Source: a virus. Taken from it: 34,904 nucleotides of DNA. Below are positions 20,027 through 21,549 of this stretch, in pieces. Position 1 is the stretch's first letter; each line of letters starts with the position of its first letter. Location of the stretch: positions 1 to 34,904 of IMG/VR virus record IMGVR_UViG_3300006117_000005; one strand, written 5' to 3'. Under the pieces are notes generated by a model that made no database searches, was not told the origin of the DNA, and was given only the letters and a program-made list of their open reading frames with translations. A program made the position numbers and the translations under genes.

Positions 20027-20048
20027 GGTTTTTTACCTTTTTAGACAA

Positions 20049-20072
20049 CAAAAAAGAGCGCTTACGCACTCT
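20049..20072 (-). terminator. Intrinsic terminator after the Zn-ribbon micro-ORF
   Basis: Minus strand reads AGAGTGC-GTAA-GCGCTCT plus TTTTTT. One pair is G-U on the minus strand and C-A on the plus strand. Confidence 0.6.
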
Positions 20073-20169
20073 CACATTTCCCACACTTCCTACACTCTTT
20101 CACCCTGAACACATCATTCTCTAACTCCCAACAGTGGAAGCAGAATATCTGGCGTATGTATCGGAGCAT
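20062..20169 (-). CDS. 35-aa zinc-ribbon-like micro-protein
   Basis: MLRYIRQIFCFHCWELENDVFRVKECRKCGKCESA has CxxC..CxxCxxC. AAGGAG lies 6 nt before the ATG. Terminators flank it on both sides. Confidence 0.5.
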   Translation of the reverse strand: MLRYIRQIFCFHCWELENDVFRVKECRKCGKCESA

Positions 20170-20191
20170 TCCTTTCTCCTTAATCAGGCAC

Positions 20192-20216
20192 AAAAAAAGC
20201 CCACATTTCTGTGAGC
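20192..20216 (-). terminator. Late-leader terminator, family member 1
   Basis: Minus strand reads GCTCACA-GAAA-TGTGGGC plus T7. It includes a G-U pair that is a C-A mismatch on the plus strand. Confidence 0.7.
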
Positions 20217-20394
20217 AGGCTATTGGTCTTTCTAATTATTAAAAAAGGGGGAGAGCCTAATTACTTAGGCCCTTGAGCATGCATCCCACTAATCTTGATT
20301 AATTTTAGTAGGTTTCACTGCTTACTTCCATAAACAGCACTGCCACATCATGCCCGTGGTGACTTTTAACACCTAAAACCTAAGGAGAAAGACG

Positions 20395-20457
20395 ATGAAG
20401 CTATTAGCTCTTTTCATCTTTATTATCTTAATGATGATTTCACAATCAGTTCATTAA
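20395..20457 (+). CDS. 20-aa hydrophobic peptide (type I toxin-like), on the opposite strand to all neighbours
   Basis: MKLLALFIFIILMMISQSVH. TAAGGAG lies 7 nt before the ATG. A hairpin plus T7 follows 80 nt downstream. Confidence 0.5.
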   Translation: MKLLALFIFIILMMISQSVH

Positions 20458-20534
20458 AATACTGGCAGCCTCACCTGAGGTTGTTTGAGCCTAGATTATA
20501 AGCAGAATATTCATAAAAAGAAATTTTTTCCGAT

Positions 20535-20568
20535 AAAAAAGCCCACCTTTCGATGAGCTTATTTTTTT
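20535..20568. terminator. Bidirectional terminator, late-leader family member 2
   Basis: Minus strand reads AAGCTCATC-GAAA-GGTGGGCTT plus TTTTAT. The plus strand forms the same hairpin with two C-A mismatches, followed by T7. Confidence 0.7.
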
Positions 20569-20577
20569 CAAAATCCC

Positions 20578-20673
20578 TTAGGTCTGCGCTACCGAACCGA
20601 CACTAGAGCTAAACAAATTAATCGTCACACCACTAACAAACATTAAAACAGGGACAAAGATTTGATTATTCAT
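20578..20673 (-). CDS. 31-aa hydrophobic micro-protein
   Basis: MNNQIFVPVLMFVSGVTINLFSSSVGSVAQT. AAGGAGG lies 5 nt before the ATG. The stop is 10 nt before the terminator. Confidence 0.5.
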   Translation of the reverse strand: MNNQIFVPVLMFVSGVTINLFSSSVGSVAQT

Positions 20674-20823
20674 AAGCACCTCCTTTTGACTCAGCATTTC
20701 AGTTGCAGGGTTTGTTAAACAAAACAACATGTAAGTTGAAAGAAAGGCGATTAATCCGAGCGCTAGCGATGGAGTTGAACCATCTTCGTAAGACGCAGCA
20801 GACCTAAATGATCTTTATAGTTT

Positions 20824-20846
20824 AAAAAGCCCACCATTTGGCGAGC
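20824..20846 (-). terminator. Late-leader terminator, family member 3 (tR'-like)
   Basis: Minus strand reads GCTCGCC-AAAT-GGTGGGC plus TTTTT, with two G-U pairs. Confidence 0.65.
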
Positions 20847-21065
20847 TTCTTCTTGAACGCCGACTGGGAATCCCCGGTCCAAAACGTAATTATTGATTGG
20901 CAAGCTGTGAACCCTTGCTTGTGCCACGTCCGTTTAGAGCCGCTTGCTAGTAAGGCACTATCTGCATCCACATCTAATAGATGGTGCGCCGGATGCAACT
21001 CAAATTATGGATACCGTATCACCTACGGATTCAATCAATATTAGTGACTAGGTTACAACTTCGCC

Positions 21066-21105
21066 ACTATAACAGAAATATGCCATATCTCGGTATACCA
21101 GTCAA
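21066..21105 (-). promoter_or_regulatory. Candidate Q-dependent late promoter (PR'-like) with a downstream -10-like repeat
   Basis: Minus strand reads TTGACT (21105-21100), a 17-nt spacer, CATATT (21082-21077), 5 nt, then TGTTATAGT (extended -10-like, 21071-21066). It starts 4 nt after the Q stop codon. Confidence 0.35.
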
Positions 21106-21108
21106 TAT

Positions 21109-21549
21109 CTAGCCAATTTTTAGTCTGTTATCGCGGGAATGGATGAAATAGCGAGCACAGTTAATCATCATGTGAGCTATCGGCTTGCTTTGATTGGTCA
21201 TATGAGCCACAGCATTTAAACTACGATTCTCCACCTTGTGCTTCACCAGACACATCACCGCATACTTGGCTGTGAAGTCCACTGACTCAGATTGAAAGAT
21301 ACCCCTCAACAACGCCTGCACCTGGTCCGCTTCATAGTCGCTAATCTCACAACGGATATAAGCCTTACCTTTTGGCATTTCCTTACCTGCTTCACGCATC
21401 AACCAGTAAATCTGATTAATATGCAAACCATCGGGATAGTCTCCTCCTCTCATGCGCTCAGTCTCACACCAAGCCCCGAACTGCTCCAGCCAGCCATCAA
21501 TTGTATATTTTGCCCAATCCATTACTTGTGTTTTCACCGCCGCATTCAT
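21109..21549 (-). CDS. Antitermination protein Q-like late-gene activator
   Basis: Start refined to MNAAVKTQV. LEQFGAWC, ISDYEADQVQALL and a C-terminal helix pattern resemble the lambdoid Q (QuuD-type) family from memory. It is the last gene before the terminator-rich late leader. Confidence 0.6.
   Translation of the reverse strand: MNAAVKTQVMDWAKYTIDGWLEQFGAWCETERMRGGDYPDGLHINQIYWLMREAGKEMPKGKAYIRCEISDYEADQVQALLRGIFQSESVDFTAKYAVMCLVKHKVENRSLNAVAHMTNQSKPIAHMMINCARYFIHSRDNRLKIG

Follow-up and report, generated by a model that had tools for sequence, protein, structure and literature searches.

The cassette at positions 20186–20540 of the prophage sequence analysed here is probably a stand-alone type I toxin–antitoxin moron of the Ibs/Sib kind, carried by a lambdoid prophage of Acinetobacter within its Q-dependent late leader. 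The sequence is the whole 34,904-nucleotide (nt) stretch of the IMG/VR record IMGVR_UViG_3300006117_000005, called the window below, and all unlabelled coordinates refer to it. Judged by sequence, the element is a new though distant addition to the Ibs/Sib kind, borne by a mobile cassette of the prophage. An earlier note on this DNA had proposed an Ibs-class locus with Sib/Ibs geometry at this place. The proposal was supported by the family of peptides to which the encoded peptide belongs, the position of the antisense promoter candidate, a layout like that of the annotated E. coli loci, sub-threshold matches of relatives to the Ibs_toxin and SIB_RNA families, and a profile comparison with the Ibs peptides (hhalign probability 93%). 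The locus consists of the following features:

20395–20457, plus strand: putative Ibs-like membrane toxin open reading frame (ORF), 20 codons, MKLLALFIFIILMMISQSVH, then TAA (20455–20457)
20381–20387, plus strand: Shine-Dalgarno (SD) sequence TAAGGAG, with a 7-nt gap to the ATG at 20395
20464–20485, plus strand: post-stop hairpin, -11.9 kcal/mol on the plus strand vs -5.7 on the minus strand
20495–20500, minus strand: antisense -10, a perfect TATAAT, invariant in four copies; start predicted near 20488
20518–20523, minus strand: weak antisense -35, TTTCTT (2/6), with a 17-nt spacer, inside an A/T-rich stretch
20372–20488, minus strand: predicted core of the antisense RNA, about 115 nt, fully complementary to ORF and SD; outer helix AACCU/AGGUU, then UUUU
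20285–20373, minus strand: structured extension with hairpins at 20373–20358, 20338–20317 (GNRA loop) and 20312–20285
20241–20273, minus strand: terminator-like hairpin (20273–20252) with C5 and then U6, an alternative antisense 3' end that would give an RNA of about 248 nt
20192–20216, minus strand: intrinsic terminator (hairpin 20216–20199) with U7, where the cassette ends downstream in the late-strand direction
20535–20560, minus strand: terminator T2, the upstream edge of the cassette
20186–20540, no strand: the whole cassette, 'module 3', about 355 nt, with boundaries from BLAST in the contigs L007, L008 and L009

The hydrophobic 20-residue ORF, the TAAGGAG 7 nt before its start and its orientation opposite to every neighbouring gene had all been pointed out earlier, and all were recovered: the adjoining genes are on the minus strand and the ORF on the plus strand. 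Upstream, an in-frame stop lies seven codons 5' of the ATG. The window, 35 kb, was scanned for ORFs of 15–30 amino acids that start with ATG, have an SD motif and are at least 90% hydrophobic in the core, and this ORF was the only one found. No SD-led hydrophobic ORF of such kind appeared in 200 dinucleotide-preserving shuffles of the window.

Relatives were found through a weak BLAST match in a Q-related locus (L042), pattern scans, and the neighbours of the small gene downstream of the L042 copy. Altogether about 11 distinct related peptides of 18–21 amino acids were detected in Acinetobacter prophages:

Window: MKLLALFIFIILMMISQSVH
L153: MKVLQLTIFIFLILISQSVY
L154 and L156: MMRLLILCIFIILALISQSTY and a ...SAY variant, respectively
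L042: MKYLTILLLVILVMISQSTY
L137, L143 and L149: MKYLIIILLVILVMISQSAY
L143 and L149: MIKLVILVILLLISMKVY and an MLKLV... variant, respectively
L146 (A. larvae): MKHLIKIIVIVLLVLISRSAN
L147: MKTFAKVILIVLLVLISQSVY
L149: MNRIAILIVIVLLVLISQSVY
L155: MRTLMIIVIMLLVLLISQSAY

The codon alignment was made from eight of these peptides, those known at that stage. The second codon position of the hydrophobic core was T in 72 of 72 codons, and the first and third positions differed in 63 and 56% of the pairwise comparisons, respectively. The invariant serine is encoded by TCA, TCG or TCT in some members and by AGT in others. RNA-level conservation alone would not yield such a pattern, and the codons, including the two kinds of serine codon, therefore indicate selection at the amino-acid level on a hydrophobic helix with a fixed I/L-S motif. 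On these comparisons a chance origin of the ORF is effectively excluded.

Conservation was also seen among the closest relatives. The window type comprises the window, L007–L009, L153, L154 and L156, and the ORF is intact across all these seven contigs; its conservation among relatives was a point on which the earlier note had made its proposal depend. The window-type copies are only about 66% identical overall, yet ORF, start, stop, length (20–21 codons) and a good SD are all kept. In the four near-identical copies the ORF is 100% identical, as is the whole stretch from TATAAT to SD. Compared with L008 and L009, the 121-nt core from TATAAT to SD has 0–1 changes vs 12–13 in the remaining 194 nt (P about 0.01–0.03). 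By this alignment the conservation of the core is constraint, the nature of which these copies do not reveal. Among the family members in general, most carry a GGAG motif 5–9 nt before the ATG, and two MIKLV/MLKLV-type members have AAGGA or AGGAG there.

The TATAAT of the window lies 38–43 nt beyond the stop of the ORF. Most family members have an opposite-strand promoter candidate 40–60 nt beyond the stop, though the sequences differ. These candidates scored 9–11/12 in L155 and in the relatives linked to a small RHH-like gene (see below), and about 8/12 in L154 and L156:

L042: TTGACT-16-TATAAT
L137 type: TTGATT-16-TATAAT
L147: TTGACT-17-TATATT
L146 and L149c: TTGATT-17-TATAGT
L155: TTGATT-17-TATATT
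L154 and L156: TTGATT-16-TAAACT
Window: TTTCTT-17-TATAAT

The earlier note had suggested looking in relatives for joint conservation of the ORF and the antisense -10. The ORF and an antisense promoter candidate occur together in most members, with two exceptions: in L153 the position of the window's -10 holds just a degenerate hexamer (TTTAAT), and the MIKLV/MLKLV type has a 9-of-12 antisense candidate only inside the ORF. Also the post-stop hairpin is a constant part of the family. A hairpin stands directly 3' of the stop in all members, the sequences differing and several having GAAA loops. Within the window type (window, L153, L154, L156) the stem is kept and the loop varies (ACCT, ACAT, ACAC, ACTC). 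G.U pairing gives the hairpin of the window roughly double the stability on the toxin strand, and the toxin strand is favoured in every window-type copy.

Five E. coli sib/ibs loci were analyzed with the same scripts. The Sib 5' ends lay 35–40 nt past the ibs stop and the 3' ends 42–46 nt before the ibs ATG, and the Sib RNAs were 136–145 nt long. Directly after every ibs stop there is a GC hairpin, whose loop in ibsB is GAAA. The Sib promoters scored 9–10/12, and the ibs-strand promoters reached at most 7/12 in all five ibs genes. The IbsC sequence given in the earlier note matched the one translated from the MG1655 annotation, MMRLVIILIVLLLISFSAY.

The alignment score of the Acinetobacter peptides to Ibs was reached 0–47 times in 2000 composition-preserving shuffles of the peptides, a similarity above that due to composition, and in hhalign the family profile matched IbsA–E with a probability of 93% (E = 2.7e-7). 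Ibs_toxin (PF13956) was the only Pfam family matched, and only by relatives; the best match covered the full profile at 15.3 bits (E = 0.02; gathering score 27 bits, IbsC control about 39 bits per copy). On the strand opposite the relatives' ORFs, SIB_RNA (RF00113) was likewise the only Rfam family, with full-length matches exactly antisense to the ORFs in L149 (29.5 bits), L146 (25 bits) and L155 (25.1 bits), against a gathering score of 56 bits. Architecture and these sub-threshold similarities all point to one family with Ibs/Sib. Rfam matches of relatives to AbsR25 and STnc230 were set aside: the alignments inspected were terminator-driven, and the leader-type matches were taken to be likewise.

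Three possible 3' ends are predicted for the antisense RNA of the window, near 20372, at 20241 and at 20192, which would give lengths of about 115, 248 and 297 nt, respectively. The earlier note had it ending at the hairpin or the terminator farther downstream, with a length of 220–300 nt. Both sites are present (20273–20252 and 20216–20199), but the RNA may instead be about 115 nt, like Sib. The folding of the cassette RNA is markedly strand-specific (z = -4.3 for the minus strand vs -0.67 for the plus strand), and the hairpins of the extension are far more stable on the minus than on the plus strand. In L008 and L009 one C-G to A-U compensatory change occurs in a minus-strand hairpin. The hairpin with the GNRA loop is retained in L154 and L156, which also have an analogue of the 20241–20273 stem followed by CUUCCUUUU.

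A twister-P3 ribozyme (RF03154) was considered for minus-strand positions 20301–20380, where the match reached 23.3 bits vs a gathering score of 39.9. It was rejected: the conserved AUAAA is replaced by ACGGG, a 10-nt deletion in L008 and L009 removes the 3' strand of P3, the compensatory change falls in a different hairpin, and the comparative data argue for a chance match. Downstream of the ORF the earlier note had pointed out a plus-strand hairpin followed by T7, which would be a terminator of the toxin transcript. The sequence exists (20539–20560, T7 at 20562–20568, 81 nt past the stop), but as a weak mirror of the minus-strand terminator (-3.3 kcal/mol on the plus vs -12.5 on the minus strand). 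The best toxin-strand promoter candidate in the window type, GTGAGC/TTGAGC-17-AATTAT, was discarded as well; it lies inside a terminator and is lost in L009.

The surroundings of the cassette are those of a lambdoid-type prophage, the Q region of which is 79% identical to Acinetobacter phages Acba_1, 4, 15 and 16. On the minus strand a Q-like gene is followed by a PR'-like promoter, the leader, a gp49/66-family gene, and then the small and the large terminase genes. Two of these features set the frame of the leader:

21109–21549, minus strand: Q-like antiterminator gene (phrog_79, E = 2.8e-26), with 63 homologous loci
21077–21105, minus strand: PR'-like late promoter TTGACT-17-CATATT with TG, just past the Q-like gene; L042 has the same element

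The Q protein on record is the ATG-started form (21549), and the GTG-started form had no exact match. The late leader of about 1 kb contains six minus-strand terminators, five of them found in the scan vs 1.3 expected, and the sixth being T1 (20848–20824). Among phages that share an identical gp49 gene, the distance from Q to gp49 is 340, 553, 1083 or 1254 bp, which makes the late leader a mosaic of cassettes bounded by terminators. The cassette with the 20-codon ORF recurs at 93–97% identity in three IMG/VR contigs (L007, L008 and L009), with different neighbours in each, and has thus been found in four different flanking contexts, the window included. It is missing from L003, L004 and L005, though the gp49 gene is identical. 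No minus-strand ORFs of at least 20 amino acids were found in the cassette.

The proposed mode of action is as follows. The plus-strand 20-residue peptide would insert in the inner membrane and be harmful once made. The minus-strand promoter about 40 nt past the stop would yield an RNA that is the exact complement of the entire ORF with its ribosome-binding site, and this RNA would block translation of the toxin messenger, trigger its cleavage, or both. In the lysogen the flanking terminators would insulate the cassette, so that only its own weak promoters act. Upon induction, Q-modified polymerase would pass the terminators, and the flood of antisense transcript would keep the toxin silent during lytic growth. 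The ORF runs opposite to its neighbouring genes in 13 of 14 loci, which fits a moron expressed in the lysogen and silenced by late transcription. Its role may be prophage retention or the exclusion of other phages. Retention is plausible by analogy with the modules of the Clostridioides difficile prophage phiCD630-1 (PMC7699646).

Several of the relatives have a further component. In L042, L137, L143, L146, L147 and L149 the small ORF is followed within about 60–125 nt by a small gene on the same strand. These partners include one related family of 61–73 amino acids (five homologue clusters) and types of 63 and 70 amino acids without detectable similarity to it. The RHH label given to them is a weak one, one type matching RHH_1 at 19 bits vs a cut-off of 20.5 and another being named 'CopG family' by the source database. 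In these members the peptide ORF and its partner share a toxin-strand promoter that scores 9–11/12 and has palindromes in the spacer. Different types of the RHH-like gene go with different palindromes, suggesting that the encoded protein regulates its own expression. Examples of palindromes in the spacer and the -10 are TTGTAGGTTAACCTACAA and TATGCTAGCATA (L146 about 1765–1795; L147 about 1770–1800; L137 1920–1950; L042 3260–3290). Tandem Ibs-like modules, two or three in a row, were also observed (L149 1400–2700; L143 1850–3030; L156 3700–4260), and in L156 a window-type module stands directly beside an RHH-linked MIKLV-type module in a region flanked by tRNA genes.

The window type has neither an RHH-like gene nor a palindromic promoter, and has an added structured minus-strand tail instead. 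No downstream gene was found in the cassette of the window and no RHH homologue anywhere in the window (tblastn E ≥ 0.2). A type II toxin–antitoxin system with an RHH antitoxin was considered for the relatives only; the window cassette lacks an adjacent protein partner gene. A wider proposal, put forward tentatively and rather doubtful in its full extent, would regard the Acinetobacter elements as an unrecognised branch of Ibs/Sib turned phage moron. Its fuller form would be a three-part module: an Ibs-like peptide, a small RHH-type repressor co-transcribed with it from a palindrome-bearing, presumably autoregulated promoter, and a convergent cis-antisense RNA. The module would be set against Q-dependent late transcription, so that induction switches it off, and the window copy would represent a reduced version that stands alone and has gained a structured tail on its antisense RNA. 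If true, one type I toxin would be under both transcriptional (protein) and post-transcriptional (RNA) control, its activity tied to the lysogenic state.

A number of observations weigh against the toxin–antitoxin interpretation of the cassette. The support for it is at the level of sequence. Of the antisense promoter claimed earlier, the perfect TATAAT held, but it is accompanied by a poor -35 and fails the 9-of-12 promoter scan. No plus-strand promoter of at least 9/12 was found in the window or in the six other window-type copies, in agreement with the earlier failure to find a convincing one. This absence is non-discriminating, because the five genuine E. coli ibs genes do not exceed 7/12 either. 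The four near-identical copies give no synonymous vs non-synonymous information for the window allele. At E ≤ 10 the window peptide had no match in Pfam or NCBIfam and the window none to SIB_RNA, and PHROGs gave nothing meaningful for the peptide. All family-level matches of the relatives to Ibs and Sib lie below the curated Pfam and Rfam thresholds and thus short of formal membership. Furthermore, the hhalign and shuffle statistics can be inflated by composition in short hydrophobic peptides, and the RNA and peptide similarities are not independent since Sib is the complement of ibs. The element is also rare: it was absent from 185,579 species-representative genomes scanned with the pattern MK...MISQS, where 58 of 58 matches were random, and in phage and plasmid collections the window-type and L042-type cassettes had only short terminator matches by BLAST. 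A pattern scan of metagenomes yielded four loci, of which two were real and two false.

The main rival explanation is that the functional product of the window type is the minus-strand RNA alone, either a phage small RNA or an 'orphan antitoxin' against related toxins from other phages, the ORF being a relic that is no longer transcribed, left from an ancestral Ibs-like toxin. A toxin-strand promoter is absent in 7/7 window-type copies vs the 9–11/12 of RHH-linked relatives, the fold is strong on the minus strand only (-4.3 vs -0.67), and an extra minus-strand domain of about 130 nt contains minus-specific hairpins with G.U pairs and GNRA loops and one compensatory change, all of which would suit such an RNA. 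A relic would hardly be expected to keep its start, stop, length of 20–21 codons and good SD across copies so diverged, with substitutions that keep hydrophobicity and a post-stop hairpin that favours the toxin strand in every copy; genuine ibs genes of E. coli, too, are without a recognisable promoter. This explanation is considered unlikely, but less so than the two that follow.

That the peptide is not a toxin was considered improbable. It could be a small membrane protein, or a leader or upstream ORF that together with the antisense RNA tunes the RHH-like regulator, and the window copy would then be a remnant without that gene. The same-strand gene 60–125 nt downstream in the RHH-linked members and the shared promoter palindromes, typical of RHH operators, would be as expected, although the RHH label itself is weak (RHH_1 19 bits vs 20.5 for one type, a database name for another). 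Such a remnant is difficult to reconcile with an intact ORF in seven contigs without the downstream gene or with L156, where window-type and RHH-linked modules stand side by side, and the similarity to Ibs and Sib points to a toxin family. A still more remote alternative holds the ORF and the TATAAT to be chance features of an A/T-rich non-coding late leader. In its favour, the ORF is short, the region is A/T-rich and TATAAT-like hexamers are common; in the promoter scan, promoter-like sites were also rarer there than in shuffled sequences. The comparative data effectively refute it through the lack of comparable ORFs in 200 shuffles, a conserved ORF family with codon periodicity, and promoter and hairpin positions that are kept across diverged sequences. 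The Ibs/Sib-type toxin–antitoxin interpretation is thus retained as the probable one.

Some other observations concern the leader in which the cassette lies. In the Q-to-gp49 leader (window 20030–21109) the cassettes each end in a similar minus-strand terminator of the type AAGCTC..GGTGGGCTTTTT. A 31-residue hydrophobic ORF, MNNQIFVPVLMFVSGVTINLFSSSVGSVAQT (20578–20673, minus strand), with AAGGAGG 6 nt before its start, occupies a late-strand cassette of its own between T1 (20848–20824) and T2 (20560–20535). Apart from the window, only its identical Logan contig was seen to carry this cassette, and the ORF had no match in Pfam, NCBIfam or PHROGs. A 35-residue zinc-ribbon-like ORF of the pattern CxxC...CxxC, MLRYIRQIFCFHCWELENDVFRVKECRKCGKCESA (20062–20169, minus strand), has a TAAGGAG ribosome-binding site and weak matches to phrog_7696/4188. 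It is widely kept just upstream of the gp49-family gene in Q-related Acinetobacter loci, and because of this conservation it is probably a real, unannotated late gene. Its ribosome-binding site and that of the plus-strand 20-residue ORF are nearly identical and form an 11-nt perfect inverted repeat, CTTTCTCCTTA / TAAGGAGAAAG, at 20175–20185 and 20381–20391 (plus strand). The pair is not kept in L008, which has an insertion between the two ribosome-binding sites. In L004 (2842–3411) the leader carries a gene of 189 amino acids with DUF723/T5orf172 matches, maybe homing-endonuclease-like, a further sign of the leader as an insertion hot-spot. In these phages the 'non-coding' leader from Q to the packaging genes is a place where small cassettes bounded by terminators are swapped.

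Type I toxins escape gene callers by their shortness and homology searches by their fast evolution, so that whole genera seem to be without them. No description of a type I system in Acinetobacter was found in the literature searched, the incomplete coverage of which makes this weak evidence of novelty. Should the peptide prove toxic and be controlled by the antisense RNA, the element would offer a testable entry point to the biology of membrane toxins, to persistence and to the retention of prophages in Acinetobacter, which is a priority pathogen. It would also extend the Ibs/Sib lineage beyond enteric chromosomes to mobile phage cassettes, and the about 11 natural peptide variants and the RHH-coupled form would be available for structure–function work.

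Among the known systems, hok/sok has in common with the cassette a small membrane toxin under post-transcriptional control and possibly the sequestration of the SD by a downstream anti-SD. Hok is about 50 amino acids long, has a leader ORF, mok, and overlaps Sok at the 5' end only. A CUCUCCU-like motif follows the hairpin in several relatives, and the window copy has no anti-SD motif. A long-range fold-back between SD and anti-SD was not supported, the cognate duplexes (-10.45) being no better than the non-cognate ones (-9.87) and the window being without the motif.

Prophage-borne type I modules are represented by CD0977.1–RCd11 on phiCD630-1 of C. difficile, where such modules are reported to help in maintaining the mobile element (PMC7699646), and by yonT/SR6 on Bacillus subtilis SPbeta, the yonT product being 58 amino acids long (PMC5848175). 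What both share with the window cassette is a prophage location, a short ORF for a hydrophobic toxin, and an antisense RNA that overlaps this ORF. They differ from it in having no sequence relationship to it, longer toxins and a partial antisense overlap, which is complete here, and the Acinetobacter cassette is in addition antisense to the Q-dependent late transcript.

The closest likeness is to Ibs/Sib. Differences were found in the host, Acinetobacter, and in the setting, which is a mobile cassette in a prophage late operon instead of a chromosomal intergenic repeat. The window type furthermore has an extra structured minus-strand domain and two downstream terminators, with an RNA of maybe up to about 300 nt, and many Acinetobacter relatives are joined to a small RHH-like gene under a palindrome-bearing promoter that the E. 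coli loci lack. The peptides agree in length (18–21 amino acids), basic N-terminus, unbroken hydrophobic core, I/L-S motif and C-terminal aromatic residue (Y; H in the window), and the window-type relatives begin with MMRL as does IbsC. The predicted cis-antisense RNA spans the whole ORF and SD from a start 30–40 nt beyond the stop. SibC is reported to recognise ibsC at two sites, one within the ORF and the other in the region of translation initiation (PMC2943612), and both corresponding regions are covered by the antisense RNA predicted here. Also common to both is a GC-rich post-stop hairpin, the loop of which is GAAA both in ibsB and in several Acinetobacter members. The antisense promoter, in Acinetobacter a candidate one, is stronger than the unrecognisable toxin promoter. 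Finally, the tandem arrangement of sibA–sibB and sibD–sibE has its counterpart in the three modules of L149 and the two each of L143 and L156.

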